A stretch of DNA of 64,000 nucleotides from Gammaproteobacteria bacterium (GCA_017425245.1 JAFOOX010000053.1:84349-148348); one strand, 5' to 3'. Positions 40,470-58,777 are shown, numbered from the stretch's first letter. A program made the numbers and translations. The notes: generated by a model from the sequence alone, not told the origin.

Positions 40470-40492
40470 AACCACAGGACGTGGAGGCATAC

Positions 40493-41842: not shown

Positions 41843-41847
41843 AGGGT

Positions 41848-42491: not shown

Positions 42492-42749
42492 GCTGTTGCC
42501 TCCGCTTGCAAACTTTCTGGATTCTAGCCCAGTTGTTGTGTTGCAGGGCAGCTCGGCGCTGCGCCAGCTTGAACCAAAGGTCCGCAAGCGCCATCCCCAA
42601 TCCGTGATCCAGTTCACCGGCTAGATTGCTGGGGGGCTGTCACTGTAACTCCGGTGCAGTTTCCTTGATGTCAGCGGGCATTGTGTGGCCGATGGCGCCC
42701 TAGCATGCACTGGTTGTGTGCAGTCATTGCGCGACCAGGAGGGAAGGGG

Positions 42750-45700
42750 ATGCGTTATCTGGAAGGGGTGATGTTGGTCTTGGTGCTGGCCGGTTGTGGG
42801 GGCGGCGGCGGTAGCGAGGATCCGCCACCAACGCCGGAGCCGACGCGAGTGGTGGCTGACAGCTTTGCGCTGCCTGCTGGTCAGCCGCAGCTGGTGCAGG
42901 CGGCCCCCGGGGTGCTGACTAACGACAGCGTTGCTGCCGGGGCCTCGGTGACGGTGGAACTGGTGACGGATGTCAGCTACGGTCAGCTGCTGCTCAATGC
43001 CGATGGCGGTTTTAGCTATTCGACCCATGCCAGCTTTAGCGATGGCGACCGTTTTAGCTATCGGTTGCTGGTCAATGGGGTGGCCAGTAGCCCAGCCGAG
43101 GTCACCTTGAGCGGCGATATCAGCAATCGCCCGTCTGAGCCGCCTGAGCCAATCAATTCAAGGGCCTGGCCGGTAGTGGGCGTTCACCCTTCGGATCTGG
43201 CCTATTGGGAAGGACCGGCCCTGGCCAATGCCATGGCTACGGCTGGTTGGCTTGAGTTTGAGCAGTACCAGTGGGGCATTGCGGTTGAGATCTGGGATAA
43301 CCCGCAATTTGATGCCAATGGTTACCCGCGCTATCTGAATCCGGGGCGCTTTCTGCGGGCCATCGTCAATGGCCTGCATATGGAAGACCCGCGCCTCAAC
43401 CGTGGCCATGTGGTGCTGACCTGGCAAGGCACGGGTGACCTGCGGCTGTCGAGTAATAGCGATGAGTATCTGGCAGCGGAGTCGAGTGGTGCCCTGACCG
43501 GCAGCCTGGCTGATGGTCGCCGCGTCTACCGCTTCGGTGAGCAGGGCGGCCTTGGCACCCTGGAGGTGCTGGCGATTGATCCGGCAGATCCGATCACCGA
43601 TATCAAAATCTGGCTATCGGACCCGGCCGATCCGCTTAACCGCTCGCTGGAGGGGCAGCTGTGGCACCCGCGCTTGCTGGAGCGCATTGCCGACTTCCCC
43701 AACAGCGTGATCCGCACCATGGCCATGACCATGACCAATGGCAATCCGGAGCGCGACTGGAGCGACCGTCGCCGCCCTGACCACTTCTCGCAGGCTGGCC
43801 AGTTGAACCCGCGCTCGCCCGCGCCAGGTGCACTGCTGTGGGACAACAGCCCGATGCCCGGCAACCGCGCCACAGGCATCGCTTGGGAGTATCTGGTGGC
43901 ACTGGCCAACACCACCGATCAGGACCTGTGGATCAACCTGCCGCATATGGCCAGCGACGATTACATCGACAAGCTGGGGCGGCTGTTTCGTTACGGCTCG
44001 GACGGCGTTGAGCCCTACGCCAGCACTCAGGCCAACCCCCGTTTTGCCCCCCTTAAGCCGGGGCTGCGGGTTTGGGTGGAGTATTCCAACGAGATCTGGG
44101 CCGGTGGCCCCAGTTTTCCCCAAGGTGACTACGCCCGCATTGAGGGTGAGGCGCTGGGCATCAGTCAGGCTCAGTTCAATGCGCGTCAGTTCTGCAACCA
44201 TTGGGCTCGCTTAACCCGGGTGATGGGTGATCCATCGCGGGTGGTCAAGGTGATGCCCACCTTCACCGGCAGTGAATGGTATGACGACCAGCTGCAGGCA
44301 GAGGTGGCCAGCTATTGCCCGACGGTGCAGCCGGCCATCGCCAAACCGGATCTGCTGGCGGTCACCACTTACTTTGGTAACGACATTCAGGGCTGGGCCT
44401 ATCAGCATGCTCAGGATCAGGCGGGCAGCGATGACCCCTGGTTTTTCACCGGTGATTCCTTCGATGCTGGCGGCGGTGCGCAGCGGCCGGTGTCGCTGCC
44501 GATCACTGACCCTTACTGGCAGAGTGCCGCCACCGAGCGCCATGAGGCGGAGGCGCTGGCTGAATGGAAGCAACGGATGCTCTCTGGCGATGCCGCTGAG
44601 GGCAGTGGCCCCGATGCCACTGGCCTCGGCGGCGGCTTTGAAAGCTGGGTGCGCCACAACAGCGAGCAGCACTTTGGCACGGCGATTCCCATCGTTGCCT
44701 ATGAGGGCGGGCCGTCGGTCTATACCGACAATCTGGATGGTGGCGATGAGCGTGACGATGGCATCACCAACTTTATGATGGCCATTAACGAGCGCCCGGA
44801 GATCGCCGAGATCTACCGCATCCACCTCAATATGGCGGTGGCAAAAGGGTTGGTGACGCACAACGCCTTTACCCTTGTGGGGGCCTGGGGCAAGTACGGC
44901 CAGTGGGGCCATCTGCGTTCGCTGGCGGCCGATCCGGCTGACGAGGTGAAGTATCAGGCGATGCTCGACTGGCAGCAGGAGGAGGCGCAGTTCAACCCGG
45001 CGCTGCAGCCACAAGGGGCAGTGCCCGCTTTTGTTACCCCGGCCGAGCTGCCCTTTGTGCTGCTCAACCAGCCTGTTGACGAGCTGGTCACTGCCAGTGG
45101 CGGCGATGGCGCGCTGAGTTACAGCATCATCGGCCAGTCGCTGGTGGCCGGGCTACAGGCACAGGTGGTGGCCGGTGGCGTGCGCTTGACCGGCAGCCCA
45201 ACGGCATCCGGTACCAGCTATCTCTATCTGCGGGTCAATGACAGCAATGGCGACCGCGACTGGCGCATCTATGTGCTGCGCACCATCGCCCGCTCCAGCG
45301 ATCCGGCGGTGACCATCGACTTTGACAGCTTGACCCAGCCCTCCTTTGGTGTACCAGCGGCCGAGCCCATCGTGGTGGCGGATAGCGATGCCAGTCGCCA
45401 TTACCAGTTCACCAGTCAGGCTGGGCTGATGCTGGAGCATCAGTTCCCGGAGCTGGGCTGGTATCTGCCGTGGCCGTCGATGGTGCTGCACAACCGCTAT
45501 TGGGGCGGCGTTCACAAGCTCGAGCGGGATGATGGTCGTCCCTTTGATCTCTGGTCGCTGGACCTGGCGATTGAGCAGGGGGGCAGTGCCGAGATCCGTG
45601 CCGAGGGGGCCGATGGTTACATCTGGCGGCAGGTCATCAATCTGCCGCCGGGCAAGACCATGACCACCGCCCAGCTCGATCTGATCGAGATCTACCGCCT

Positions 45701-45788
45701 CGAGATCCGCTGGTTTGAACTGGCCGACGGCGAGGGGCGGGCACTGGCCGGCGCGATCGACAACCTGCGCTTTAACCAGCAGCCCTAA
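42750..45788 (+). CDS. Large (1012-aa) surface lipoprotein with N- and C-terminal Ig-like/cadherin-like (putative-Ig) domains flanking a central domain of unknown, possibly glycoside-hydrolase-like, function
   Basis: Lipoprotein signal with lipobox LAGC followed by a Gly-rich linker. Ig-like segments (VVADSFALPAGQP..VLTNDS; GGDGALSYSIIGQSLVAG..). RBS GGAGGGAAGGGG precedes ATG 42750. Confidence 0.6.
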   Translation: MRYLEGVMLVLVLAGCGGGGGSEDPPPTPEPTRVVADSFALPAGQPQLVQAAPGVLTNDSVAAGASVTVELVTDVSYGQLLLNADGGFSYSTHASFSDGDRFSYRLLVNGVASSPAEVTLSGDISNRPSEPPEPINSRAWPVVGVHPSDLAYWEGPALANAMATAGWLEFEQYQWGIAVEIWDNPQFDANGYPRYLNPGRFLRAIVNGLHMEDPRLNRGHVVLTWQGTGDLRLSSNSDEYLAAESSGALTGSLADGRRVYRFGEQGGLGTLEVLAIDPADPITDIKIWLSDPADPLNRSLEGQLWHPRLLERIADFPNSVIRTMAMTMTNGNPERDWSDRRRPDHFSQAGQLNPRSPAPGALLWDNSPMPGNRATGIAWEYLVALANTTDQDLWINLPHMASDDYIDKLGRLFRYGSDGVEPYASTQANPRFAPLKPGLRVWVEYSNEIWAGGPSFPQGDYARIEGEALGISQAQFNARQFCNHWARLTRVMGDPSRVVKVMPTFTGSEWYDDQLQAEVASYCPTVQPAIAKPDLLAVTTYFGNDIQGWAYQHAQDQAGSDDPWFFTGDSFDAGGGAQRPVSLPITDPYWQSAATERHEAEALAEWKQRMLSGDAAEGSGPDATGLGGGFESWVRHNSEQHFGTAIPIVAYEGGPSVYTDNLDGGDERDDGITNFMMAINERPEIAEIYRIHLNMAVAKGLVTHNAFTLVGAWGKYGQWGHLRSLAADPADEVKYQAMLDWQQEEAQFNPALQPQGAVPAFVTPAELPFVLLNQPVDELVTASGGDGALSYSIIGQSLVAGLQAQVVAGGVRLTGSPTASGTSYLYLRVNDSNGDRDWRIYVLRTIARSSDPAVTIDFDSLTQPSFGVPAAEPIVVADSDASRHYQFTSQAGLMLEHQFPELGWYLPWPSMVLHNRYWGGVHKLERDDGRPFDLWSLDLAIEQGGSAEIRAEGADGYIWRQVINLPPGKTMTTAQLDLIEIYRLEIRWFELADGEGRALAGAIDNLRFNQQP

Positions 45789-45858: not shown

Positions 45859-46572
45859 ATGGTGAAACTGGGCAAACGGCTGCAGGCACTGGATGCCATG
45901 GTGGTGGCAGGCTACGACCAGATCTGGGATGGCTGCTGTGACCACGGTTTGCTGGGGGCCGCGTTGCTGTCTCGCCGCGCTGCCCCGCTGATCCATTTTG
46001 TCGATCTGGTGCCGGCGCTGATGCAACAGCTGGCGCACCAGCTGCAGCGCCATTTCCCGCTGTCCGCTGCGGCCGCCGATGAGGGCGTTCAGCCGCGCTG
46101 GCAGGTTCATTGCTGCGATCTAACCAGCCTGCGTCTCGATGCTGCTGGTGGCCGTCAGCTGGTTATCATTGCCGGTGTTGGTGGTGATCTGATGGCGCGC
46201 ATGGTCGAGGGGCTGTGCCTGACGAACCCCAACCTCAGCTTTGATCTGCTGCTCTGCCCCGCTAACCACGCTTACAACCTGCGCGCCCAGTTGATCGCCC
46301 TCGGCCTTGGCCTGAAGCATGAACAACTGGTGGCCGATAACCGCCGTTACTACGAGCTGCTATTGCTCACCACCGAGCCGGGAGCTGGCCGCGCAGTGAG
46401 CCCGGCTGGTGACCAGCTGTGGCAGACCAGCAACCCCGAGCAGGCGGTCAACGCCGCCCGTTATCGTGAGCAGAGCCTGCGCCATTACCAGCGTATGCAG
46501 CTCAGCCAAGGCGAGCGGGTGCAACCGCAGATCGAGGCCTATCAGCGGGTGCAGCTGCCCTCGGAGATGTGA
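45859..46572 (+). CDS. Class I SAM-dependent methyltransferase, TrmK (tRNA m1A22)/COG2384-like
   Basis: N-terminal pattern LGKRLQALDAMVVAGYDQIWDGCCDHGLLGAALL resembles TrmK (KRL..A.......D.G.DHG.L). Confidence 0.5.
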   Translation: MVKLGKRLQALDAMVVAGYDQIWDGCCDHGLLGAALLSRRAAPLIHFVDLVPALMQQLAHQLQRHFPLSAAAADEGVQPRWQVHCCDLTSLRLDAAGGRQLVIIAGVGGDLMARMVEGLCLTNPNLSFDLLLCPANHAYNLRAQLIALGLGLKHEQLVADNRRYYELLLLTTEPGAGRAVSPAGDQLWQTSNPEQAVNAARYREQSLRHYQRMQLSQGERVQPQIEAYQRVQLPSEM

Positions 46573-46587
46573 GCATCTCGCCTGGGC

Positions 46588-47274
46588 TCAGGGCGCATGG
46601 CGGGCCCACAGGGTGTCGAATTCGCTGCGGAAGCTGGCCACCAGCTGCGGCTGGTCGGTTACCAGCAGATTTTCCTCATTGCTGGTGGTGGCGCTGCGAG
46701 TCCAGTTGAAGCTGCCGTTCAGCAGTAACCGCCGATCGAAGATGGCGAATTTGTGGTGCATGTGGAACGGGCTGTTGTCGACGCGCAGTGGCACCCCTCG
46801 TTCACGCAGCCACTGAATATCACTGCCATCGTCGTACAGTTTGTCGTTGTCGCTCAGCACCCGTATGGCGATCCCCCGTTGATGGCAGGCGAGGATCGCC
46901 TCGCTCAACTGATCGTCAGAGATGGTGTAAACGCAGATATCAACGCTGTGGCGCGCCTGCTGCAGCAGTTCACGGATCTTGCGGCGGCAGCTTTCACCGG
47001 GGCTGAAATGGGCGCTGGCGATCCCTTGGGGGGCGATGGTCGGGCTGCGGTCGAGGGTTTTGATCACCTGTTCCAGCCATTTCAGTGCCGCTTCGGCCTG
47101 CTCGGGCTGGCGCACCAGTTCGCGCACCAGGGCAAAGGCGCGGTTGCGCATAAAGCGCAACTGATCACTGGTCAGGTTGTCGCCCAATTGGCGCAGTTCA
47201 TCACGTTCATCATTGCTTAGCTTGAGATCGGCGAGGCTGTCACGCAGTTGCTGGTCGAGTTGATTGAAATCCAC
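46588..47274 (-). CDS. PLD-family (single HKD motif) phospholipase D/nuclease-like protein
   Basis: HKD motif HMHHKFAIFD..LLNGSFNWT. 228 aa, with the N-terminal ~75 aa helical. Last gene of the minus-strand operon. Confidence 0.75.
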   Translation of the reverse strand: MDFNQLDQQLRDSLADLKLSNDERDELRQLGDNLTSDQLRFMRNRAFALVRELVRQPEQAEAALKWLEQVIKTLDRSPTIAPQGIASAHFSPGESCRRKIRELLQQARHSVDICVYTISDDQLSEAILACHQRGIAIRVLSDNDKLYDDGSDIQWLRERGVPLRVDNSPFHMHHKFAIFDRRLLLNGSFNWTRSATTSNEENLLVTDQPQLVASFRSEFDTLWARHAP

Positions 47275-47285
47275 GATAGGCTCCG

Positions 47286-47864
47286 TTAATCGGGTTGTTG
47301 GCGCTGGCGCCCGGTGATGCCCGGGCGCGGGCCAAAGGCGGCATAAAGCCCACCACAGAGCGCGCCCGCCAGGTGGTACTCAAAGGAGATACCGGGTTGG
47401 CTGGGCAGCAGGCCAAAGATCCAGCCGCCATAGAAAAACAGCACCAGCGCGGCCAGCAGCAGATCGGTCAGCTGGCGGTGAAACCAGGCGCGCCCCAGCA
47501 GCAGCGCCCATAGCCCGAACAGCCAGCCGCTGGCGCCCACATGAATGCCGGGGCGACCGAGCAACCACACCAGCAGCCCGCTGCCGAGCACGATGGCGCC
47601 GCTGGCCAGCCAGAAATCGCGACGGCAGCGCAGCAGCAGCAAGCCGCCGAGGATCGCCAGCCCCATCAGATTACCGAGCAGATGGCCCCAGCTGCCATGC
47701 AGCCAGGGTGACAGCAGAATGCCAGCCAAGGCGGATGGCTGACGCGGCACCAGCCCCCACTGGTTGAGGCTGTAGCCGCTCAGGCTGTTGGCCAGCTGCA
47801 GCACCAGCATCAGTCCGGCGATGGCCAGCAGCAGGCGCACCTTGGTGGCAAGTGAGGCGATCAT
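47286..47864 (-). CDS. Rhomboid-family intramembrane serine protease
   Basis: Six TM segments, GxSG catalytic motif (GASGWLFGL) and a downstream His in a TM segment. 4-bp overlap with the upstream giant gene. Confidence 0.8.
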   Translation of the reverse strand: MIASLATKVRLLLAIAGLMLVLQLANSLSGYSLNQWGLVPRQPSALAGILLSPWLHGSWGHLLGNLMGLAILGGLLLLRCRRDFWLASGAIVLGSGLLVWLLGRPGIHVGASGWLFGLWALLLGRAWFHRQLTDLLLAALVLFFYGGWIFGLLPSQPGISFEYHLAGALCGGLYAAFGPRPGITGRQRQQPD

Positions 47865-50800
47865 CGCGGCTGACCATCGTCAGTGGCGCCGTTATCTGCT
47901 GCCACCGGTTCTGCGTCGCTCAACGCCGATGGTTCAGCGGCGTGACGGTCGCGCAGGCGGGCGGCCAGTTTCAGTAACCGATGATGGGCGCGCAGATCCA
48001 GATCTACTTTGCGCTCCAGGGTTTTGACCAGCGGCATAAAGCCCTGCTCAAGGCCGTTGGCCAGCTGCGCCAACAGCGGCACCAAGTCGGCCGGTGGAGC
48101 ACTGTTCACCGTCACCTGCGGCGTCTTGTGGGCGATCTTGGTCAGCCGCTCAAGCAGCTCTGACCAGGGGATTGGGTCGACGGCAGGGGCGGCCTCTGCC
48201 GGTTGCTGCAGCTGCTCGCCGATGGTGCGGACGCCGCCCACCAGATCGTGGAGCTGGGCGACCAGTTTGCTGCCGACATCGCTGTCGTCGCCACCCATCG
48301 CCTTGTTCCGCAGAAAGTCGCGTTTGATCTGGGCCCAGCGCTCTGCCTGTGGTGCGCTCATGGTGCCGCGCAGTTCCGCCAGTTTGAGCAGGTTTTCCTC
48401 GGCACCGGCGGTTAGCAGCTGCGATTCGCCCTGATAGTGGTCGCTGATCAGCTGCTGCAGTTCGGCATCGTTCATCACCGCCGAGATCTTTTCCGCCATC
48501 TTGTTCATGTTGCGGTAGCTGCCCTGCAACTTGAACGGCGGTTCGGTACGGTAACGGTCGGCCTGGGCGGCGCTGGCGATGTACTGCTGGTTGACCTTGA
48601 ACACCAGATCGCGCACCTGCATCAGTCGCTGCAAGGTGGTGACAATCTCATCGATCTCGGCGCTGCTGTAGTTGTGACTCAGTTCATTGGCCGAGAACGG
48701 CTTGCCCTCCGCCTTGGCCACCAGACGGTAGAGGTCGGCCATGTCGCGGGTGGCCAGCGGTGCCAGCACCGCATTGGAGGTGAGGGCGTTTTCGATATAG
48801 GAGAGGCGGAACGCCTCCTCCATGCCCCCCAGGGTATCGCCCAGGTTGTAGACATCGGCGCGGTTGGCCAGCATGTCCGGGATGCGGAACAGTTCGCCGC
48901 TCTCGGTGTAGGGGTTACCGGCCATCACCACGCAGAATTTTTTGCCGCGCATGTCATAGGTCTTGGTGCGCCCCTGCCACACCCCTTCAATGCGTCGGGT
49001 GCCGTCGCACAGCGAGATGAATTTCTGCAGAAATTCGGCATGGGTGTGCTGGATGTCATCGACATAGAGCATGACGTTGTTGCCCATCTCCAGCGCCAGG
49101 TTGAGCTTCTCCAGCTCCTGGCGTGAGGTGGCGTCCGGGGCTTGGGCCGGATCAAGCGAGCGCACCTCATGGCCCAGTGCCGGGCCGTTGATCTTCATGA
49201 AGATCAAGCCGAGACGGTGGGCCACATATTCCATCAAGGTGGTTTTGCCATAGCCGGGGGGCGAGATCAGCATCAGCAGCCCCATCAGGTCGCTACGCTT
49301 GCTGTCGCCGGCGCTGCCCATCTGTTTGGCCAGGTTGTCGCCAATCACCGCCAGATAGACATCGTTGATCAGCTTGTTGCGCACAAACGAGGTCAGTGGC
49401 CGTGGTTTGAACTCGCTCAGCCGCAACTGCTCGCGATGATGGCTGATCAGTTGCTGACGCAGCGCTTGGTATTGCTGCAACTGAGGCAGGAACTGCTGAC
49501 GATGGTGACGCAGACGGGCAAAGAGATCATCCACGGCCAGCTCCAGCTGCTGTTGCTGAATGCGCGGGTGGTCGCCCATCAGATCGCTGATGGTGAAGCG
49601 CAGATCGACGGTGCTGGTGCGTGCGGCATAGCCGTCTGGCAGCAGGGTCAGGGCTACTGCCTCAGGAATGTAGTGAGCGAGCGGTGCTAGTGCCGGATCG
49701 CTGCACAGTGCCCGCAACCAGTGGTCGACCAGCGCCCAGGCGGCGGCTAGCTGCCCCTGCAGCTGGCGCAGCGCCTGCTGGTAGCTGTCCCAGACCCGCG
49801 CTTGTTGCAGCCGGGCCTGCAGGGTGGTGACCAGCTCGCGCCCATAGTGGCTGAACACCATCGCGCCCGCGTCATTGGCCAGCGCCGCCAGCAGATAGTG
49901 CGCAGCAGCCTGCTGGCTGTCGTGATCAGTGGCGAGCTGGTGGGTGTCGACAAACTGGGTGATGGCCGCTTCCAGCTGTTGTTGCAGCGCGTTGAGCGCC
50001 TGACGTTGGCCAAACAGCTGCTGCATGTGATGGGCGGTACGCGCCTGTTCCGGCCAGTGGCGGCTGTCGCTGCGCTGCTGTTCGCAGTGCCAGAACAGCG
50101 CGGCCAGGGCGCGTGCCGTCGGGCTGTGGCAGAGCAGGCCGGCGGCGTCACGCAGCGGCAGCAGACGGCTGATGATCAGCGCGGCATCGTGATCGTGGAT
50201 CCCCTTCTGGTAACCCTCGCGGTAGCGCGGGGCGGCAAAGTCGCGCACCAGCCGGGTCAGGGCGTCGATATCGGCAGTCGCCGTGCGCAGGCTGTCGATG
50301 GTCAGGCCATCGCGCCCCTCGTCGGCCGCCGCCAGCAGTTCACCGGCCAGATATTCGGCGCGGTAGAGGCTGGGCGATTCCGATTCCAGCGACAGCTGCC
50401 AGAAGTCGCGCAGCGCCTCCAGCTGCGGCTCATGCACCGGCTCCAGATAGTCGGTGCCGGTGAGATGCAGACACAGCTGATCGCCCCGTGGCAGCAGGGT
50501 CAGATCCAGCTCCTGGGTGTTGACGCTGAAACGGTGGCGCGGACCGAGACGGATAACATTGCCGCCCGCTTCGAACAGTTCACTCTTGTCACGCAGAGCC
50601 CGTACCGCCTGATCGCGCGCCCCTTTGAGGCGGGCTTCGATGTCGTCGGCTTTGACGCTGTCGTGCAGCTCGCGCAAGCGCGCCGTCAACTCACGTAACT
50701 TCAGGATCAGCGGATCGGCGGCAAAGAAGGCGTTGAGCTCGGCCATCTCGGTCAGCCGTTCGGTACGGCGGCCAAGGCTGTCGAGAATGCGCTTGGCGGC

Positions 50801-53146
50801 GTCATGCAGGCTGCCGGCCCGACGTTGGCGCTCATCCATCAACTGCTGTTTGTGGGCCTCGAAGGTTTCAACCAGCTCATCACGCTTGGCCAGAATGTCG
50901 CCCAGAAACTGTTCATGGTCGCCGAACTGGCCTTCCAGTTCCTCCAGTTGCACCAGCAGCCGCGACAGTTGTTCATCGCAGCTTTCCGGGCTGGTGGCCA
51001 GTGCCAGCGCGTTGGTGATGCCCTGGCTGAACAGCTTGAACTGGGCGCCGAACTGGGCCACGGTCTCGGCCGAGCCCAGCCCTTTGCGGCGTTGTTCGGC
51101 CCGCGCCTTGGCCTGGTTGAGGCGGGCATAAACTTCCGAGATCCCCTCCACGATGCGGGTGCGCTGGGTGGCATCATCAATCGGCAGCGATGCCATCAGC
51201 GTCGACAGCATGTCGAGGTCGGCCGCCATCGCCGCCAGCGCCTGCAGCGGTTCGTTGAGCTGGCTGACGCTTTGCGCCGCTTGCGCCTGAGTGTCCAGTT
51301 GCTGCAGGCGGGTAACCAGCGGGGCTAAGGCAGCATCGCTGGCCAGATAAGCCGAAGTGGCGGTTGACAGCTGCTGGTGAGCATCGACCAGCGCCTGTCC
51401 CATGGCGTCGATGCGGGCGACATCAATGTAACGGTAGTCGCGAATGGTTAGCAGCAAGCCGCGCTGGGCGGTGATGGCGTTGAGGTCGTCCACATAGTGC
51501 TGAACGCTGTCGCGGCTGGCGCTGCCGAGTCGGTCCAGCAACGTCTGCTGGCGCTGCTCAGCGTCGCGCATGGCGGCGGCGGACTGCTGGCGGATGCTCT
51601 CTACTTTTTCGAACTCGTCCAGCACCCGTTCGCCGCTGGCGGTGATCTCGCGCAGCAGCGGCGCCAGCCCGTCACACTCCGGATCGGTGAGCCAGTGATA
51701 GTGGTCGAACAGCTTGCGAGTGTTTTGGCACAGCAGCGTGTAACGGGCGACCGATACGTCACGGCCGTCGATATCACGGCAGAGGTTGAGCAGCTCTGAC
51801 AGCCCGCGTACCAGCTCGGCGTTGCTGACCCGGCCGAAAAAGCCGCTACGGCTGGGCTGGCGGGCGGCAAATTCATCGCTGTAGAACGGGGTCTGCCAGA
51901 TCTGCATCGGGTGGATGCGGGTCGGTTCGGTGCCCTCGGCCGCAAAGATCACCATGCGGCCATCTTCAAGGCGGGCAAAGCCGTGGCCAACCAGCGGGTT
52001 ATGCAGTTGACGATTGATCAGGTTGTAGGTGAAAAGCGCCGAACGGCCCTCTTCCGGGTGGTAGAAGACGTATTGCACATCTTCACCGTTGGGTGAGCGC
52101 AGGGTGCGCTTGAAGCGCATGCCGGTCATCGGCAGGTCGAACTGCTTGTACTCACCACTTTGCAGGTAGTAGCCACCGGGGAAGATGATGCCGTGGTCTT
52201 CCGGCAGCTGAACGCAGGCCTGGCCGATGGCGTCGATGCGCACCACCTGCCGGGTCAGGCCGTTGTAGACCAGATGGCGCCATTGCTCTTCGCGGTAGGG
52301 GAGGATGCGCAGCAGGATGAGGCTACCGAGCCGGGCATATTCGATCTGGGCATCGTCCAGCGATTGGGTCAGATCCTGCACCGCTTCGCGGTAGATCCCC
52401 TGGCCATCCTGGGTGTTGTTCTCAATCTTGACTGTCAGGTCGCCGCCCACGGTTTCAACAAAGACAGTGTCGAGAATATTGATGTGGGGGTGGCGGCCGT
52501 TGACCACCTGTTCACGGCCAGTCTTTTGCCATTCGAAATCGTAGGGAGCGGGCAGCGCGATGTCGCGCTCACCGCGATTGTCGATGTAGCGGATCTCGCC
52601 ATTGAGGGCGATCGACCAGCGGAACACCCGGATGTCACTGATCCGCTCGCCAATCTGGAAGCTGGCCAGCAGCTTGCCGTCGCGCACCACCAGCTGTAGC
52701 AGCCGGGTATTTTTGTAGTAGGTGTAGAGCTCGCGGAAGTCGTTCACGAAGCTCGGTTGATCAAGAAAACTGCCGGCCAGCGGCTGCGCTTCCGCCTCGT
52801 AGCCTTCGGCCTGTTCCACCAGTCGATAGAGGGAGAACACATCCTCGATGCGTGTCTCTTTTTTCAGCCCCAGAAAGACGTTGTAGCCGAACAGCAGGGT
52901 ATCGCCGACGCGCACGATGTCGCGGGCGCTGCAGTTGTTTTCGGTGCGGATCCGCACCCGGCCGATCACGGCCATCTGGCTGCTGCCAAAGGCGTCCAGC
53001 CGCTTCTGGTTCAGCCCGTCAGCCAGCTGGCGCAGGCGCAGCCCCTGCTCCTGCAGGCGCTTGCGCAGCACCTCATAGGCGCCGCCAGCAGCAACGGCCT
53101 GGTCGACAAGTTCCTCGGGCTGGGTGGCGTGGCTATCCGACATCAT
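47861..53146 (-). CDS. Giant (1761-aa) protein with a ~1250-aa largely helical/coiled N-terminal region and an internal AAA+ ATPase core. Walker A GYGKT is near residue 1297 and Walker B (hhhhDD) is VMLYVDDIQ.
   Basis: Single uninterrupted ORF with operon-consistent codon usage. P-loop LISPPGYGKTTLMEYV, Walker B MLYVDDIQ and sensor-like VVMAGNP. No N-terminal Walker A, so not SMC/RecN-like. Confidence 0.85.
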   Translation of the reverse strand: MMSDSHATQPEELVDQAVAAGGAYEVLRKRLQEQGLRLRQLADGLNQKRLDAFGSSQMAVIGRVRIRTENNCSARDIVRVGDTLLFGYNVFLGLKKETRIEDVFSLYRLVEQAEGYEAEAQPLAGSFLDQPSFVNDFRELYTYYKNTRLLQLVVRDGKLLASFQIGERISDIRVFRWSIALNGEIRYIDNRGERDIALPAPYDFEWQKTGREQVVNGRHPHINILDTVFVETVGGDLTVKIENNTQDGQGIYREAVQDLTQSLDDAQIEYARLGSLILLRILPYREEQWRHLVYNGLTRQVVRIDAIGQACVQLPEDHGIIFPGGYYLQSGEYKQFDLPMTGMRFKRTLRSPNGEDVQYVFYHPEEGRSALFTYNLINRQLHNPLVGHGFARLEDGRMVIFAAEGTEPTRIHPMQIWQTPFYSDEFAARQPSRSGFFGRVSNAELVRGLSELLNLCRDIDGRDVSVARYTLLCQNTRKLFDHYHWLTDPECDGLAPLLREITASGERVLDEFEKVESIRQQSAAAMRDAEQRQQTLLDRLGSASRDSVQHYVDDLNAITAQRGLLLTIRDYRYIDVARIDAMGQALVDAHQQLSTATSAYLASDAALAPLVTRLQQLDTQAQAAQSVSQLNEPLQALAAMAADLDMLSTLMASLPIDDATQRTRIVEGISEVYARLNQAKARAEQRRKGLGSAETVAQFGAQFKLFSQGITNALALATSPESCDEQLSRLLVQLEELEGQFGDHEQFLGDILAKRDELVETFEAHKQQLMDERQRRAGSLHDAAKRILDSLGRRTERLTEMAELNAFFAADPLILKLRELTARLRELHDSVKADDIEARLKGARDQAVRALRDKSELFEAGGNVIRLGPRHRFSVNTQELDLTLLPRGDQLCLHLTGTDYLEPVHEPQLEALRDFWQLSLESESPSLYRAEYLAGELLAAADEGRDGLTIDSLRTATADIDALTRLVRDFAAPRYREGYQKGIHDHDAALIISRLLPLRDAAGLLCHSPTARALAALFWHCEQQRSDSRHWPEQARTAHHMQQLFGQRQALNALQQQLEAAITQFVDTHQLATDHDSQQAAAHYLLAALANDAGAMVFSHYGRELVTTLQARLQQARVWDSYQQALRQLQGQLAAAWALVDHWLRALCSDPALAPLAHYIPEAVALTLLPDGYAARTSTVDLRFTISDLMGDHPRIQQQQLELAVDDLFARLRHHRQQFLPQLQQYQALRQQLISHHREQLRLSEFKPRPLTSFVRNKLINDVYLAVIGDNLAKQMGSAGDSKRSDLMGLLMLISPPGYGKTTLMEYVAHRLGLIFMKINGPALGHEVRSLDPAQAPDATSRQELEKLNLALEMGNNVMLYVDDIQHTHAEFLQKFISLCDGTRRIEGVWQGRTKTYDMRGKKFCVVMAGNPYTESGELFRIPDMLANRADVYNLGDTLGGMEEAFRLSYIENALTSNAVLAPLATRDMADLYRLVAKAEGKPFSANELSHNYSSAEIDEIVTTLQRLMQVRDLVFKVNQQYIASAAQADRYRTEPPFKLQGSYRNMNKMAEKISAVMNDAELQQLISDHYQGESQLLTAGAEENLLKLAELRGTMSAPQAERWAQIKRDFLRNKAMGGDDSDVGSKLVAQLHDLVGGVRTIGEQLQQPAEAAPAVDPIPWSELLERLTKIAHKTPQVTVNSAPPADLVPLLAQLANGLEQGFMPLVKTLERKVDLDLRAHHRLLKLAARLRDRHAAEPSALSDAEPVAADNGATDDGQPR

Positions 53147-53244
53147 GGTCTTCCTGAAGTTGCGGCAGCATCAATGGTGGCCCGACATGGGCCAGCCAGC
53201 TCAGAGTCGACCGGCACCTGCGCAGGTGCCGGTCTGTGGGTCGG

Positions 53245-55275
53245 TCAGAGCGCGCCGCCCTGATCGCCGGCCGTTTGGCTGGCGCCGGCCTTGCCGGTCA
53301 GGAAGCGGGCAACGATGTCCTGCACCACCGGGCTTTTGCCCACCACCCCTTCGATCGCCTTGCCCACCGACAGCGACTTGGCAAAGGAGTTAAAGAAGTC
53401 CCCTTCGCCACCGACGATCTCGATCTTGGCTTTGGCCAGCGCGGCAGAGAGCACTTCGGCCTGATCCTTGGCGATCTCTTTGTTGGCGGCGATGGCGGCC
53501 ATCGCCTCGTCGAAGCTCTTTTCCAGCTGCATGCGGAACTCTTCGTGCGCGCGGGCGTTGTCGCTGAGGGTATCGAGCGCGCCAAATTTCTTGGCCAGAC
53601 CTTCCGCTTCGGCGTTCAGACGCTGCAGCAGGATCTGCGCTTCGGCGCTGCCCAGATCCTGGGTGGCCTGGGCTTTGGCATGGCCGAGCTGCTCTTCGCC
53701 ACGGGCCTGGGCACTGAGCTTCTCTTCCAGCACTTTGGCTTCCGCCAGCCCCTCTTTTTCACGGGCGACGGCCTGGGCTTCAATGATGCGGGCTTGAGCG
53801 ACCCCTTTCTCCTGCTCGCCTTTGGCTTCGGCGATCAGCAGCTCCGCCTTGACGCGTGCCTCGGCCAAGCCTTCCTTCTCTTTGGCCAGCGCTGTGACTT
53901 CGCGGACACGCGCATCGGCCAGCCCGGGCGCGGCACGTTCGGCCTCGATCCCTTCGGCCATCCGCTTCTTGGCTTCGGCATCCTTGGCTGCCGCTTCCAG
54001 CTCGGCCTGGGCCAGGGTGTTGATCTCGGCGGCTTTGTGCTTCGACTTGGTTTCGTCGGCTTCGGCTTGTTTGACCTGGCGTACCAGCTCCTGCTCGGCC
54101 TCCGCCTGGGCGTTGATGATCGCCACCTGCTTGCTGCGGTCCGCTTCCGATACTTCGCGCACCTCTTTGATCCGCTCTTCTTCCTGGGCAACGGTCTTTT
54201 CTACTGCCACCCGCTCGCGGATCACGGCGGCGATGTTCTTGCGCTCCACTTCCAGCGCCTTTTCTTTCTCGATCCGCTGCAGTTCGACTTCACGCTCGCG
54301 TGAGACAACCTCCAGCTCTTTGGCGCGGGTAACTTTTTCCACCTCAATAACCACTGCCCGTTGGCGGTTTTGCTGGGCCACTTCCACTTCGCGCTGATGG
54401 TTTTCGGCGCGGATATCCAGCTCCTGCTGGGTCTGGATGCGGGCCTGCTCGGCCTTCAGCCGTTCTTCCTCTTGCACCTTGAGGGTCTCGGCCTGCTCAC
54501 GCGCCTGAATGGTCTCGATTTCGCGCTTCTGGCGCGCTTCGGCATCGGCTTGCTGGCGTTCCAGCGCCAGTGTCGCTTCGCGCGTTTCGACGTTTTTCTT
54601 CTTGATCGCCAGCTCTTCGTTACGCTCCAGCTCGTTGGTGATGACGTTCTGGGCCGCAGTCAGCTCGGTGATCTTGCGAATCCCCTCGGCGTCGAGAATG
54701 TTGGTCGGATCGAGGGAGTTTTTGGGGGTTTGCTCAAGGTAATCGATGGCGACATCTTCCAGCACATAACCGTTGAGATCGTTGCCGATCACCTCGACGA
54801 TGCGGTCGCGGAAGCTCTGGCGCTCTTCAAACAGCTGCACAAAGTCGAAGCGCTTGCCGACGGTTTTCAGCGCCTCAGAGAACTTGGCGTTAAACAGCTC
54901 GTTGACTGCGCCGCGATCGGAGGCCCGTTCGGCACCGATCGCCTTGGCTACTTTGAGCACATCCTGCTGGGTTTCGTTGACCCGCAGGTAGAAGGCCACA
55001 GTGATGTCGGCGCGCAGGTTGTCGCGGCAGATCAGGCCATCCTTGCCGCGGCGGTCGATCTCCAGGGTGATCAGGGAGATCTGCATGAACTCCTTCTTGT
55101 AGATCACCGGGTAGACCAAAGCGCCGGTAAAGTGGACCTTGGGCTGGGTCGACATGTCGTTGACGATCAGCGCGGTACCCTGTGGCACCTTGATGTAGAA
55201 GGCTTTGAACAGGGCGAAAAAGCCGAACAGGAGCAGAAAAAACAGCCCCAGACCCATCAGGAATGGCATCACCAT
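53245..55275 (-). CDS. Flotillin-family SPFH/Band-7 protein (YqiK-like) with an extended Ala/Glu/Lys-rich coiled-coil
   Basis: N-terminal TM followed by an SPFH domain (..VPQGTALIVNDMS.., ..ITLEIDRRGKDG..), then a long EA-rich heptad region typical of flotillins. 676 aa from ATG 55275. Confidence 0.85.
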   Translation of the reverse strand: MVMPFLMGLGLFFLLLFGFFALFKAFYIKVPQGTALIVNDMSTQPKVHFTGALVYPVIYKKEFMQISLITLEIDRRGKDGLICRDNLRADITVAFYLRVNETQQDVLKVAKAIGAERASDRGAVNELFNAKFSEALKTVGKRFDFVQLFEERQSFRDRIVEVIGNDLNGYVLEDVAIDYLEQTPKNSLDPTNILDAEGIRKITELTAAQNVITNELERNEELAIKKKNVETREATLALERQQADAEARQKREIETIQAREQAETLKVQEEERLKAEQARIQTQQELDIRAENHQREVEVAQQNRQRAVVIEVEKVTRAKELEVVSREREVELQRIEKEKALEVERKNIAAVIRERVAVEKTVAQEEERIKEVREVSEADRSKQVAIINAQAEAEQELVRQVKQAEADETKSKHKAAEINTLAQAELEAAAKDAEAKKRMAEGIEAERAAPGLADARVREVTALAKEKEGLAEARVKAELLIAEAKGEQEKGVAQARIIEAQAVAREKEGLAEAKVLEEKLSAQARGEEQLGHAKAQATQDLGSAEAQILLQRLNAEAEGLAKKFGALDTLSDNARAHEEFRMQLEKSFDEAMAAIAANKEIAKDQAEVLSAALAKAKIEIVGGEGDFFNSFAKSLSVGKAIEGVVGKSPVVQDIVARFLTGKAGASQTAGDQGGAL

Positions 55276-55386
55276 TTCAAGACTTATCACTCTCAATCTC
55301 CTTTGATTTGCGCGGGTCAACCACTGGCCCGGCCATGATCAGAACAACATTCCGTTATGGCGCTGGCAGGCAACGCCGGTGCAGTC

Positions 55387-56031
55387 TTAGCTGCCGTTAA
55401 ACTCTGCTTCTGTCACCACCCGATAGGCGTGTTCATCGGCCAGATACTCCAGTAGCACCACCCGGTCGCCACGCTTGAGGGCTAGCCCGTCATCTGCGCG
55501 GATCCGCAGGATCAGCCCGGCACCACCATCGTTGAAATCGGCCTCGCCATGGCGGGTGCTGACCGAACTACTGCGCACTATGGCTATCTGGCCAATGATC
55601 GAGCGGCTGTCAGTGGCCTGTAGCTTGTGAAACAACGGGCGTAACGGCCTGACCAGCACCCGGGCCGGTGCTGCAGCCAGCAGCAGGCTGGCCGGGATCA
55701 GCAGCAGGCCGAGGGGGTAGCGCAGGATGCCAAGCGGCAGCCAGCGCAGCAGTAGCAACTCGGCGAAGTAGCAGAGGATCCAGGCAAAGAAGAACAGCAG
55801 GGTGAGCACCAGCGTCACCGGCACGCCATTGAGCCCCAGCTTCATCAGCAGACCGGCCAGACCTTCTGGCTGCAGGCTGTCACCTTCCAGTGCTGAATCG
55901 ACCTCGATATCCAACAGCTCAACCTCGACCAGCCCTAAGGCTGCAACCAGCCAGTAGAGGATGGCGATGCACAGCAAAAAGCTGAGCACCACCACCGGAA
56001 AGGCCATCGAGGTTTGCAGAAATAGTTCCAT
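55387..56031 (-). CDS. NfeD-like membrane protein (YqiJ-like) with a C-terminal OB-fold
   Basis: Multi-TM N-terminal half and a soluble C-terminal beta-rich domain (..GQIAIVRSSSV..GGAGLILRIRADDG..GDRVVLLEY). It is the canonical partner gene of flotillins. Confidence 0.7.
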   Translation of the reverse strand: MELFLQTSMAFPVVVLSFLLCIAILYWLVAALGLVEVELLDIEVDSALEGDSLQPEGLAGLLMKLGLNGVPVTLVLTLLFFFAWILCYFAELLLLRWLPLGILRYPLGLLLIPASLLLAAAPARVLVRPLRPLFHKLQATDSRSIIGQIAIVRSSSVSTRHGEADFNDGGAGLILRIRADDGLALKRGDRVVLLEYLADEHAYRVVTEAEFNGS

Positions 56032-56085
56032 GACTGATATCCGTCTGCTCTGCGTTTGCAGGCGTGGCCGGGCCCCGCCCATCCG

Positions 56086-56781
56086 TTACCCCTGCTTGCG
56101 CGCCTTCAGCCGGGCCAGCACGCTGTCGGCAGCGGCACTGTCGGACACGATCCCGGCTGCCCGCAATTTAACGTCCAGCTGGTCGTCCGGGGTACTGGTG
56201 GCGGCTAGTTCAGCCGCAGCTTCCATGCGCGCGCCGCGTTCGGCCTGCTTTTGTTTGATCCTCTCCAGCGACTCTACTGCGGTGTGCAGGCTGGCCTGCG
56301 AGCCGCCATGGCGTTGGGCCACCGCCTGCTGTGCTTTCTGCACGCTTTCAGTGGCTTTGACCGTATCTACCTGCTGCTTCAGCCGTTTGATGTTGCCTTC
56401 CGCTTGGGTGACCGCTTTGCGCAGCTGGGCGACGCTGGCGGCAAAGGCTTCCGCTTGCTCCCGTTCACTGGCCTGCTCGTTCTCAAGGGCGGCGATCTTC
56501 TCGGCTACCTCATGGGCCAGCGTTTCATCGCCGCTGTCCAGCGCCTTGATGGCGTACTGCTCATATTCGGCAATGCGGGCGCTGCACTTGTTTACCCGTT
56601 CATCTGCCAGTTTCTGTTTGGCCATGATGCCCGCCAGCGCCTCTTTGGCTTGGCGCAGTTCTTCGTCGGCATCGCGGATCTCCTGGTCGAGAATGCGCAG
56701 CGCCTGGCTGTCGACCATGGCTTCACCCACTTCATTGGCGCCGCCACGCAACGCCGTCAGCATTTTGCTCCACACGTTCAT
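56086..56781 (-). CDS. PspA/IM30 (Vipp1/ESCRT-III superfamily) protein, YjfJ-like
   Basis: 231-aa all-helical coiled-coil protein with a PspA_IM30-like N-terminus (MNVWSKMLTALRGGANEVGEAMVD..). Confidence 0.8.
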   Translation of the reverse strand: MNVWSKMLTALRGGANEVGEAMVDSQALRILDQEIRDADEELRQAKEALAGIMAKQKLADERVNKCSARIAEYEQYAIKALDSGDETLAHEVAEKIAALENEQASEREQAEAFAASVAQLRKAVTQAEGNIKRLKQQVDTVKATESVQKAQQAVAQRHGGSQASLHTAVESLERIKQKQAERGARMEAAAELAATSTPDDQLDVKLRAAGIVSDSAAADSVLARLKARKQG

Positions 56782-56794
56782 TGCATCTCTCCTG

Positions 56795-57415
56795 TCAGAT
56801 ACTGGCCTTGAGGAAGTTCTCGTAGGCCTCGGTCGCCTTGATCACGTTGTCGGCCAGCAGCTCAATTTCAAACACCACATCGCTGAGGGTCGAGGCCGAG
56901 CTGAGGGCGCCAAACATGCTGTAGTAATCCTGGCCGTCGGCCCGCTGCTCCAACCCGATGGAGGAGAGCGGGAACAGCTTGTGGCTGCGTAGCACCTCGT
57001 CATTGAAGCGGGCGCTGTCAGTGACAGCTGACGCTGGCCACAGCATCGCTTCAACGACGATCTGCTCGCCGTAAACGCCCATGAACAGCGGCAGGTCGCC
57101 GTAGTCATGCATGGTCAGGTGGAGGCTGGCATCAGCCCCCTGAATCAGTTCAAGGCTGGCTTGACCGCTGCTGATCAGTTCGGTGCCGGCCAAGGCGCTG
57201 CACAGGGTCTGTGCGGTCCAGATGGGCGTCATGCTCATTGCCTCCGTCATCTCCGGTGACACCAGCCCGGTTCGCGGCTGGCGTAGTTTGCGCTCAAGCG
57301 CCAGCAGGTGGCCGGCATGCTCGGGCAGGATCCAGACCTCTTTCTTGACCAGCCCCTGCTCACGCAGACGTTGGCGATAAAGGCGCTGGTAATGTGCTGA
57401 TGATTTTGTGTCCAT
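56795..57415 (-). CDS. YjfI-like (DUF2170-type) cytoplasmic protein, tentative; first gene of the operon
   Basis: Its position immediately upstream of a PspA-family gene mirrors E. coli yjfI-yjfJ. The family assignment is from memory, not computed. The track ORF begins at TTG 57451; ATG 57415 is preferred. Confidence 0.4.
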   Translation of the reverse strand: MDTKSSAHYQRLYRQRLREQGLVKKEVWILPEHAGHLLALERKLRQPRTGLVSPEMTEAMSMTPIWTAQTLCSALAGTELISSGQASLELIQGADASLHLTMHDYGDLPLFMGVYGEQIVVEAMLWPASAVTDSARFNDEVLRSHKLFPLSSIGLEQRADGQDYYSMFGALSSASTLSDVVFEIELLADNVIKATEAYENFLKASI

Positions 57416-57429
57416 GTGCAGCAGCCTAG

Positions 57430-57467
57430 TTGTTACATGTGATGCTGTCAATTGGTTACATGTGATG
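57430..57467. promoter_or_regulatory. Two direct copies of GTTACATGTGATG (each with a palindromic ACATGT core), 22 bp apart, overlapping the region just upstream of the operon start codon
   Basis: ttgttacatgtgatg at 57430-57444 and ttggttacatgtgatg at 57452-57467, read directly from the sequence. Confidence 0.45.
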
Positions 57468-58006
57468 TTTTTTGTGTCGGCATAGACAGCCGTCCACGCC
57501 AGTTGCTGAGCGACAATTCGCCACAGCGGCTGCCAGCCTGAGCTGTGCGCTGATAAGGGGGGAATAACGAGGCGATGACAGGCGTGGTCATGGAGTCACA
57601 TCCTTGTGCTCATTGTAGCTGGCGGCCTTGCCAAGAGAGCGGAGCGCCATGATGCCACAGCGATCAGCTTTGGTCATCGCTTAATCGGTAACGGTGTCTG
57701 CCGGATCACAAGATCTGCGTCACCAGCGCTGAGGCTGCACGGGTGATGGTGCATGGCGCGCGGCGCTCTTGGTGCGAACGAGCGGGGGGCTTGCCCCCGC
57801 GCTATGAAATTCTGAGCCATGGCAGTGAGCTGCTCAGCGGTCACTGGCACAGCCTTTGAGTAGCGTCCCCCAGAGTCAGTGCGGTATTGCTACCGGCTGG
57901 CAGGGCACAGGCGCTCAATCGACGCGGTTTTACCGCTGGAGATTGGGCGCTTTTTTTATGCCCGCTTGTCAGCCAAAGCGGTCATGAACAGAGCCCGCCA
58001 GTGCCA

Positions 58007-58777
58007 TCAGAAGTGCGACTTGAGGATCAGGCTGAACACGCTTTGGTCGGTGTTGAAGGCCTTGCTATCCTTGACGCCGTACTTGTTCGACCAGTAGCTG
58101 TACTCGGTGCCGACCAGCACACGCTTGGCTTTCCAGCCGATCGCCTTGCTGACGTCATATTTAAGCTGCGGGTTGAAGTGCAGGTTGCTCTTGTAGCTGC
58201 CGTCGCTGTCGACGTTCCAGTCGATAAAGCCGTCAAAGATGATGTCTGAGTTGCCTGCCGGGAAGGTCATGGACCATACCGGGGTGATCTGGATGGTTTC
58301 GCCATCACGGCCATCACGCGGGAAGCGCTTGTAGACATTGAGCTGGAAGAAATCGAAGCCCGGGATCTTGAGGTCGAAGCCGGGGCCGACCAGCAGGGTT
58401 TCAACATCGCCTTCACCGAACTCATAGGTGGTGGCCAGCAGCACATCGCTGAACAGCGGGCCTTTGAACTCGGCATTGAAGATTTTGCCAATCGACAGAC
58501 GCGGGCTGAATTCGCCGTAGTAAGCGGAGTCGCCAGTCAGGAAATCTTCCTGGCCGTTGAACTCGGCGTAGTCAACGAAGGTGAAGAGGTCACCGAAAGC
58601 CCAGCCGCTGGCATGCTCGAAGGTGACAGTCTGCTGGATCGGCGGGTTGACCGCGTAGTTGGTGCCGTAGAGGTAGCTCAGGCTGGTGTCGGTCCAGTGC
58701 AGCAGGCCATCGGCAGCAACCGGGGTGGCGAGCAGGGCAGCGGAGAGGGCAAGGGCGCTAGCGTGTTTGTAGTTCAT
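58007..58777 (-). CDS. tsx: Nucleoside-specific outer-membrane channel Tsx/OmpK family
   Basis: Signal peptide (MNYKHASALALSAALLATPVAA) and a Tsx-like beta-barrel sequence ending in the aromatic residue F. Confidence 0.85.
   Translation of the reverse strand: MNYKHASALALSAALLATPVAADGLLHWTDTSLSYLYGTNYAVNPPIQQTVTFEHASGWAFGDLFTFVDYAEFNGQEDFLTGDSAYYGEFSPRLSIGKIFNAEFKGPLFSDVLLATTYEFGEGDVETLLVGPGFDLKIPGFDFFQLNVYKRFPRDGRDGETIQITPVWSMTFPAGNSDIIFDGFIDWNVDSDGSYKSNLHFNPQLKYDVSKAIGWKAKRVLVGTEYSYWSNKYGVKDSKAFNTDQSVFSLILKSHF

Follow-up and report, generated by a model that had tools for sequence, protein, structure and literature searches.

We analysed a 64,000-nt stretch of DNA from a Gammaproteobacteria bacterium (GCA_017425245.1 JAFOOX010000053.1:84349-148348; hereafter the window, counted from its first nucleotide) and report on seven consecutive minus-strand genes at 46588-57415 which, judged by sequence comparison, are the orthologue of the Pseudomonas aeruginosa bacABCDEF operon (PA3732-PA3727 / PA14_16140-16200) with a rhomboid gene added. 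The open reading frames (ORFs) span 46588-57451 before, and 46588-57415 after, correction of the bacA start codon (see below). In transcriptional order the locus comprises:

57416-57467, minus strand: regulatory region, with two operator copies and promoter-like hexamers.
56795-57415, minus strand: bacA, 206 aa; basic N-terminal domain of ∼60 aa followed by DUF2170, which has a CesT/type III secretion system (T3SS) chaperone fold.
56086-56781, minus strand: bacB, 231 aa; PspA/IM30 protein (ESCRT-III superfamily) of the YjfJ type.
55387-56031, minus strand: bacC, 214 aa from the ATG at 56031 (alternative upstream start, ATG 56082); YqiJ family.
53245-55290, minus strand: bacD, ∼675-691 aa; flotillin-like, with an uncertain start (TTG 55320, GTG 55290 or ATG 55278/55272).
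47861-53146, minus strand: bacE, 1761 aa; soluble giant ATPase with DUF3686, DUF7902 and an AAA+ module.
47286-47864, minus strand: rhomboid, 192 aa; intramembrane serine protease with a Rhomboid Pfam match.
46588-47274, minus strand: bacF, 228 aa; soluble single-HKD phospholipase D-family (PLD) protein, PLDc_2 preceded by a helical N-terminal domain of ∼95 aa.

The tight packing described in an earlier note made from the sequence alone (the original prediction) is confirmed. The bacE and rhomboid genes share 4 bp (ATGA, 47861-47864) at the stop of the former and the start of the latter, the rhomboid and PLD genes are 11 bp apart and bacA and bacB 13 bp apart, and the remaining gaps are ∼54-110 bp, depending on the start codons chosen. 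The same note placed a region of about 550 bp between the operon and its upstream neighbour tsx (58007-58777); the gap is real, although its length is 591 bp from the corrected bacA start. A terminator scan of the minus strand found no site between the operon genes, its single match on that strand falling inside the rhomboid ORF, and none after the PLD gene, 16 bp beyond which a convergent methyltransferase gene ends; terminator-like matches in 46000-58100 were at chance level. The G+C content of the operon is that of its flanks. Hydropathy analysis assigned about three transmembrane segments to BacC and a single N-terminal anchor to BacD, marked the rhomboid as polytopic and detected no transmembrane segment in the other four proteins, in line with the membrane association foreseen for these products. 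Most of the predicted families were likewise recovered in Pfam and NCBIfam searches (DUF2170, PspA_IM30, Rhomboid and PLDc_2, with Band_7 matched by an N-terminal fragment).

Identity with the bac operon

Searching the P. aeruginosa locus (L001) by tblastn with the window proteins returned all six Bac proteins, collinear and on one strand, at 58% (A), 73% (B), 61% (C), 83% (D), 72% (E) and 68% (F) identity. The P. aeruginosa genes, which encode DUF2170, PspA, 213-aa, 688-aa, 1746-aa DUF3686/AAA and 230-aa PLDc_2 proteins, reproduce the order of the window minus the rhomboid. BacA also scores above the cut-off of the NCBIfam equivalog NF050185, ‘biofilm formation regulator BacA’ (338.9 bits against 300), over positions 1-205 of the 206 in the profile.

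PA3732-PA3729 were named the ‘biofilm-associated cluster’ by Mace et al. 2008 (PMC2587700), and a 2024 follow-up extended the cluster by reverse transcription PCR to six co-transcribed genes, bacA-bacF, in P. aeruginosa (PMC10948618). In the latter study BacB-F rose 6- to 13-fold in a bacA mutant, and BacA, of which 139 residues were crystallised, was solved as a T3SS-chaperone-like dimer. Biofilm formation, swarming, rhamnolipid production and virulence all suffer when bacA or bacB is lost (PMC2587700, PMC10948618); PA3731 is induced by osmotic shock (PMC2587700), and PA3728-PA3732 by phage infection (PMC12041424). Ravi et al. 2024 (PMC11237479) found computationally a neighbourhood of CesT/Tir, PspA, band-7/flotillin, AAA+ and YqiJ genes with an optional PLD, listed an abbreviated flotillin-YqiJ-AAA+ core without PspA, and already suggested a role in ESCRT-like, ATP-dependent membrane remodelling.

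The original prediction had held that the arrangement was absent from characterised systems. This claim to novelty fails because the operon is bacABCDEF and belongs to a published PspA neighbourhood; its functional intuition matches the published ESCRT-like proposal. The system is thus one known from genetics and comparative genomics, and the window holds a rhomboid-containing variant of it, not a new system. As far as the searchable literature shows, three elements have not been described before: the rhomboid module, the operator pair with its leaderless-type promoter, and the N-terminal domain of BacA. The word ‘rhomboid’ is absent from the main text and one supplementary file of Ravi et al. 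2024 (PMC11237479), and our literature searches returned no paper linking a rhomboid to the bac operon.

A constant core with variable partners

To place the operon among its relatives, one genome per GTDB species was scanned with bacE, which gave at least 588 loci, and 80 species-level loci were fetched and searched by tblastn with the seven window proteins. Among these 80 loci the denominators are 70 for the bacA/bacB side and 75 for the genes downstream of bacE. More than 6271 homologues of BacE were found at E ≤ 1e-10, the closest of them in Pseudomonas-lineage genomes (71-76% identity), and the closest homologues of all seven products also lie in this lineage rather than in Aeromonas, Vibrio or Shewanella, which had been suggested as relatives.

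The genes for the YqiJ-like protein, flotillin and AAA+ ATPase stood side by side in every locus whose sequence extended far enough to judge, and make up a constant core. Around it the composition varies. bacA was present in 52 of 70 loci and bacA together with bacB in 50, both being missing in Stenotrophomonas, Xanthomonas, Luteimonas and Xenorhabdus. Downstream of bacE we found a rhomboid gene in 21 of 75 loci and a PLD gene in 26 (both in 14, neither in 42). The PLD is nearly confined to loci that carry bacA (25/26; Fisher p = 0.0015, kinship ignored). The full seven-gene order recurred in 13 further loci, from nine Pseudomonas-lineage species (in the genera Pseudomonas, Aquipseudomonas, Ectopseudomonas and Phytopseudomonas), two Cellvibrio, one Oleiphilaceae and one unclassified gammaproteobacterium. 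Order and orientation are kept across dozens of genera, and the locus is therefore a genuine syntenic unit, as had been proposed, and not a set of chance neighbours.

In 12 Pseudomonas-lineage species the operon occupies one chromosomal slot, with a CoA-transferase on one side and YaeQ-RecJ on the other, which indicates that it is core and vertically inherited there rather than island-borne. Between the operon and YaeQ the slot loci (L001, L003-L007, L009-L012, L017, L032 and L074) carry from 0 to ∼4.5 kb of extra genes. The flanks in the window, tsx upstream and the methyltransferase downstream, are entirely unlike this slot. A different accessory gene, encoding a helical protein of ∼254 aa, follows bacE in L021, L022, L024, L025, L027, L028, L038, L049, L052, L055, L057, L077 and L079; these are Xanthomonadales-type loci, mostly without bacA and bacB, and in several the next gene encodes a TelA-like protein of the toxic-anion-resistance family.

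Paired operators upstream of bacA

The operator-like direct repeat predicted at the 5′ end of the operon is CATCACATGTAAC, which occurs at 57467-57455 (copy 1) and again at 57444-57432 (copy 2). The paired motif is found once in the window, with 0 expected by chance. A -35 hexamer, TTGACA (57451-57446), is followed by a 17-nt spacer in which operator copy 2 lies, by the -10-like hexamer TAGGCT (57428-57423) and, after 7 nt, by the bacA ATG.

The 33 loci inspected, which include members of Pseudomonas, Lysobacter, Cellvibrio, Comamonas, Delftia, Lampropedia, Gilliamella and others, share this arrangement in front of bacA. A TTGA(C/T)A -35 hexamer is bracketed by two or, in some loci, three short palindromic copies of (A)TTACATGT(A/G)A(T), usually 22-24 bp apart; the second copy fills the 17-nt spacer, and a TAnnnT -10 hexamer and 6-7 nt lead to the ATG. 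Of the 52 loci with bacA, 43 carry at least two copies of ACATGT(A/G)A, none of the 18 loci lacking bacA does, and the region upstream of E. coli yjfI has no ACATGT motif. In the divergent bacA loci L022, L025, L028, L049 and L077 the direct pair gives way to TTTCATGTAA-N13-TTACATGAAA, an inverted repeat that takes in the bacA start codon with its second half-site.

This conservation also bears on the start of bacA. A TTG start at 57451 (218-aa ORF, 56795-57451) was rejected: the TTG opens the -35 hexamer TTGACA, and the conserved layout implies that bacA starts at the ATG at 57415. The resulting 206-aa product agrees with the NCBIfam profile and with the metagenome gene call. Because there is no room for a Shine-Dalgarno sequence between the -10 hexamer and the ATG, the bacA mRNA is probably leaderless, or nearly so, and transcribed from a sigma-70-type promoter. 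A sigma-54 (-24/-12) promoter upstream of bacA was considered and rejected, since the minus strand between tsx and bacA held no match to TGGCAC-N5-TTGCW with up to two mismatches, and the TTGACA/17 nt/TAnnnT layout is what is conserved instead; window-wide the sigma-54 pattern was at chance level (45 found against 49 expected). Control of the operon thus appears to act through a palindromic operator pair on a leaderless sigma-70-type promoter and not through sigma-54. A consensus sigma-70 scan of 46000-58100 gave no promoter-like site.

An N-terminal domain in BacA

DUF2170 is matched in BacA at 170 bits, and the crystal structure PDB 8Q8O aligns to residues 64-204 only. The part N-terminal to this, MDTKSSAHYQRLYRQRLREQGLVKKEVWILPEHAGHLLALERKLRQ, is missing from 8Q8O and yet nearly invariant among homologues; it is encoded at 57226-57415 on the minus strand of the window, and the bacA gene of P. 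aeruginosa lies at 5722-6342 of L001. The first 50 residues are basic (11 K/R against 5 D/E), and E. coli YjfI lacks the domain. When these 50 residues were searched with HMMER against 1.84 billion representatives, only BacA-like proteins or fragments were returned, always matched at the N-terminus, so no other architecture reveals the fold. Pfam gave no match to the N-terminal 63 aa. In an AlphaFold 2 monomer model the C-terminal domain matches 8q8o at a template-modelling (TM) score of 0.94, and YbjN, AmyR, SicP and ExsC as well; all matches of the fold search fell in this domain.

From these comparisons it seems that the BacA crystallised and studied in P. aeruginosa (∼139-146 aa) was without the conserved N-terminal domain of ∼60 aa. 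If this is true, it changes how the published data on the regulator are to be read. The most economical interpretation, we infer, is that full-length BacA is a repressor that binds the ACATGT operators, in view of the derepression seen in the bacA mutant, the conserved basic N-terminus, and the co-occurrence of operator and bacA.

Two probable membrane scaffolds and a giant ATPase

BacB matches PspA_IM30 over its full length at 186.9 bits against a cut-off of 33.9, and is 38% identical to E. coli YjfJ, also over the full length (E = 4e-38). The canonical PspA of the psp regulon was rejected as an identity for BacB (TIGR02977, 16.3 bits against 243), and no homologue of pspF, pspB or pspC was found among the genes called in the 25-kb locus around the operon (L002).

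As full-length queries neither BacC nor BacD gives a Pfam match. BacC is an inner-membrane protein with a beta-rich C-terminal domain, always adjoins bacD and bacE, and is 25% identical to E. coli YqiJ over 200 aa (E = 1e-6); YqiJ_N is matched by 9 of 24 BacC homologues. It had been called NfeD, but no PF01957 match appeared even at E up to 10, a single homologue of the 24 reached the NfeD profile (E = 0.087), and a BacC profile found no NfeD structure in PDB, where it retrieved designed TIM barrels only (E > 0.2); BacC belongs instead to the YqiJ family. The flotillin call for BacD, by comparison, holds up. Scanned alone, its N-terminal 240 aa match Band_7/SPFH at residues 44-193 (32.6 bits against 23.6), and the protein is 28% identical to E. 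coli YqiK over 456 aa (E = 6e-40), with an N-terminal transmembrane anchor, the SPFH/Band-7 domain and a long coiled coil. The Flot domain (PF15975) is a weak match (14.4 bits against a cut-off of 27, E = 0.041), and a sequence search of PDB with BacD yielded nothing useful.

In BacE, Pfam recognises DUF3686 (678 bits, residues 38-484), DUF7902 and AAA_5/AAA, and also AAA_22 and RuvB_N. The protein is laid out as DUF3686, which Ravi et al. 2024 (PMC11237479) describe as a beta-propeller, a coiled coil with DUF7902 (606-688), a helical region, one AAA+ module (∼1280-1480) and a helical tail. Walker A (GYGKT), Walker B (VDDIQH, residues 1360-1368), the sensor-1 Asn and the arginine of ANRAD are invariant in the alignment of homologues. 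PDB holds no solved relative detectable by sequence, whether with a single sequence or with a profile. A model of residues 1230-1761 reached a mean pLDDT of 69 and a pTM of 0.39, with 75-94 (pLDDT) in the AAA+ core and lid, and its best fold matches were RuvB, NorQ, CbbQ and MCM, with no chain of the Vps4, p97 or katanin type among the 50 matches listed. A Vps4-type ATPase was accordingly rejected as an identity for BacE, which has no MIT or Vps4-type Pfam match either, and the expectation that this AAA+ protein is unrelated to Vps4 was borne out. BacE looks like a MoxR/RuvB-type remodeller with a large propeller and a coiled-coil arm, an assignment to clade that is tentative because the C-terminal model is only moderately confident. 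BacE is kept in loci without bacA and bacB. PspA therefore cannot be its only client, and its obligate partners would be BacC and BacD.

Rhomboid and PLD genes

The rhomboid matches its Pfam family at 68.1 bits against 22.6, and HxxxxHxxxN, GxSG and the His of the sixth transmembrane segment are intact in it and in 23 of 23 homologues. The rhomboids of bac loci form one family of 22 members. They can be described, from their sequences and positions, as a recurrent and probably co-evolving add-on directly after the ATPase, and the linkage suggests that the system makes use of intramembrane proteolysis in many lineages. In L060 the two are linked in another way: a rhomboid homologue (5191-5643, minus strand) lies upstream of bacA and is divergent from it. 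Rhombosortase was rejected as an identity (TIGR03902, 25.8 bits against 84).

The PLD protein matches PLDc_2 at 105.1 bits against 27, and its motif HHKFAIFDRRLLLNGSFN (HxKx4Dx6GSxN) is intact and kept in 27 of 27 full-length homologues. Its identification as NucT, DrmC or DpdK was rejected (59.5 against 211, 37.3 against 133 and 29.5 against 100 bits respectively).

Proposed role and competing explanations

We read the locus as an inducible system for the maintenance of the cytoplasmic membrane under stress, built on two scaffolds, one of the PspA/ESCRT-III type and one of the flotillin/SPFH type, in the form of a bac orthologue with a rhomboid; we put the probability of this reading at roughly 0.6. 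In such a system full-length BacA would act as an autorepressor, its basic N-terminal domain occupying the two palindromic ACATGT(A/G)A operators around the -35 hexamer and filling the spacer, and the sigma-70-type promoter would fire 6-7 nt upstream of the ATG to give a leaderless mRNA. The CesT-like chaperone domain of BacA would bind a partner, most likely BacB, and membrane stress, by recruiting BacB to the membrane, would change the occupancy of the operators. BacC and BacD may form a membrane-anchored SPFH assembly, the pair and BacE being the invariant core, and BacE, as a MoxR/RuvB-like motor with a propeller and a coiled-coil arm, would use ATP to assemble, disassemble or extract proteins at the SPFH platform, at BacB polymers, or at both. 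Of the optional components, the rhomboid might cleave either a client anchored in the membrane or BacD itself at its N-out/C-in anchor, and the PLD might hydrolyse a phosphodiester of lipid or nucleic acid.

Several points weigh against this reading. Nine of the 52 loci with bacA lack the operator motif or carry an altered form of it. The -10 hexamer of the window itself (TAGGCT) is weak and fails the consensus scan, and it is from the comparative layout that the sigma-70-type, leaderless promoter is drawn. The N-terminal domain of BacA is modelled with low confidence (AlphaFold 2 pLDDT 37-66), and fold and Pfam searches connected it with no known DNA-binding fold and no Pfam family; that it binds DNA is what we infer. 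In BacE, Walker B has DD instead of DE, and hydrolysis may in consequence be slow. The rhomboid is missing from most loci, so the core mechanism cannot depend on it. Because the loci are related by descent and not independent, the co-occurrence counts overstate the evidence. To our knowledge, the biochemistry, interactions and substrates of the Bac proteins amount to the structure of the BacA dimer. Finally, the P. aeruginosa authors propose a putative sigma-54 promoter (PMC10948618).

The alternative that survives best, though we consider it unlikely, is that the Bac proteins are a biofilm, surfactant or vesicle export factor that organises microdomains for rhamnolipid secretion or outer-membrane vesicles, and do not serve membrane repair. 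Rhamnolipid yield, swarming and biofilm formation are indeed reduced in the bacA and bacB mutants (PMC2587700, PMC10948618), and PA3729 is reportedly a recurrent find in vesicle and envelope proteome studies. However, many genera that carry the operon, such as Lysobacter, Cellvibrio, Comamonas, Gilliamella and Xenorhabdus, are not known for rhamnolipids, and this broad spread makes the rhamnolipid phenotype probably a downstream one; induction by osmotic shock (PMC2587700) as well as by phage (PMC12041424) points to a general stress role.

A role in anti-phage defence or abortive infection, in which the HKD protein would be the effector, acting as a nuclease or a phospholipase, and sensing would fall to the AAA+ and membrane proteins, was offered as an alternative in the original prediction and now appears improbable. 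Phage infection raises expression of PA3728-PA3732 (PMC12041424), but such induction is the namesake trait of Psp-type envelope stress responses. Toxin-antitoxin pairs do lie within a few kb of the operon in the window, but its G+C content matches the flanks, and the single conserved CoA-transferase/YaeQ-RecJ slot in the 12 Pseudomonas-lineage species is not island-like. The PLD is weakly similar to DrmC, DpdK and NucT models, at scores far under the defence-model cut-offs (DrmC 37 against 133 bits, NucT 59 against 211); PADLOC matched it weakly to DrmC, Mko and DpdK, all below cut-off, and otherwise matched only the PspA coiled coil to SMC-like models, the five remaining proteins giving no match. 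Moreover, the supposed effector is missing from 49 of 75 loci in which the core persists.

Participation in a DNA repair or nucleoid-associated machine is highly improbable. It is favoured by database names (Pfam gives DUF3686 as ‘ATPase involved in DNA repair’, NCBI uses ‘DNA repair ATPase’, and BacE homologues are labelled ‘DNA repair ATPase’ or ‘MoxR-like ATPase’ by their sources), by the resemblance of the BacE AAA+ module to RuvB and MCM in fold searches, and by NucT models being the closest to the HKD protein. However, the RuvB and MCM matches cover the generic AAA+ core only, at TM scores of 0.16-0.36, and those to NorQ and CbbQ are just as good; neither a DNA-binding nor a repair domain was detected; and a literature search for ‘DUF3686’ returned zero papers, with no literature found behind the ‘DNA repair’ name. 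Since BacE always adjoins two integral membrane/flotillin genes, and these membrane-protein neighbours are invariant, the label appears unsupported. Coincidental juxtaposition of housekeeping membrane genes, for which one could cite the separate yjfIJ and yqiJK loci of E. coli, is effectively refuted by the conserved order and orientation over dozens of genera, by co-transcription in P. aeruginosa (PMC10948618), by the 4-bp overlap of bacE and the rhomboid gene, and by linkage of the rhomboid in a different position in L060.

Relationship to other systems

The window shares all six genes and their order with the P. aeruginosa bac operon, in which bacA is likewise preceded by paired ACATGT operators (L001). 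The differences are the rhomboid between bacE and bacF, the chromosomal flanks, and the published short BacA (139-146 aa) and putative sigma-54 promoter, neither of which fits the comparative data. The neighbourhood of Ravi et al. 2024 (PMC11237479) has the same architecture, including the optional HKD hydrolase, and the gene counts obtained here agree with it, but no operator, promoter or BacA N-terminal domain is described there. As had been proposed, the operon joins what in E. coli are the yjfI-yjfJ and yqiJ-yqiK pairs (YjfI 34% identical to BacA in the DUF2170 domain, YjfJ 38% to BacB, YqiJ 25% to BacC and YqiK 28% to BacD) with further genes; in E. coli the pairs stand at two separate loci, with no AAA+, rhomboid or PLD gene adjacent at either, and YjfI differs from BacA both in its missing N-terminal domain and in having no ACATGT operator upstream.

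An ESCRT-III-superfamily protein of the PspA family encoded beside an AAA+ ATPase recalls ESCRT-III and Vps4. The likeness stops short of BacE itself, which has no MIT or Vps4-type match, resembles RuvB, NorQ, CbbQ and MCM in fold, and is kept in loci without bacB. According to a 2025 review, bacteria seem to have no Vps4-like ATPase to regulate PspA assembly (PMC7619361), and we regard the bac-type operon as the best candidate for an ATP-driven partner of PspA and flotillin.

The combination of SPFH scaffold, rhomboid and AAA+ protein is also met in Erlin1/2-RHBDL4-p97 of the endoplasmic reticulum and SLP2-PARL-YME1L of mitochondria (PMC9437926). The correspondence would be one of analogy and not orthology: BacE is neither a classical-clade AAA+ protein nor an AAA protease, and the bacterial side is known from genes. 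Two further readings are more ambitious, and more tentative. The first is that the seven-gene form is a bacterial counterpart of these eukaryotic SPFH-rhomboid-AAA+ quality-control machines, wired to PspA and PLD, with BacE as the ATPase that remodels the ESCRT-III/flotillin assembly. The second is that BacA is a new bipartite repressor, joining a DNA-binding N-terminus to a T3SS-chaperone-like sensor and made from a leaderless mRNA, which would achieve PspF-PspA-like feedback from unrelated parts. We think these readings possible, but somewhat doubtful.

Neighbouring genes

The spacer between tsx and bacA holds a sub-threshold match to the Rfam family radC (57717-57855, minus strand; 25.1 bits against a gathering threshold of 40, E = 0.0095) that probably arose by chance. 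On the other side of the operon, the region at ∼38637-45788 looks like a variable region, with no tie to the operon seen. It includes an HTH/HipA pair (∼38637-40318), an MNT/HepT toxin-antitoxin pair (∼41848-42491) and, just past the operon, a 1012-aa cadherin/Big-repeat protein (42750-45788, plus strand); a beta-CASP/metallo-beta-lactamase protein is also encoded nearby.

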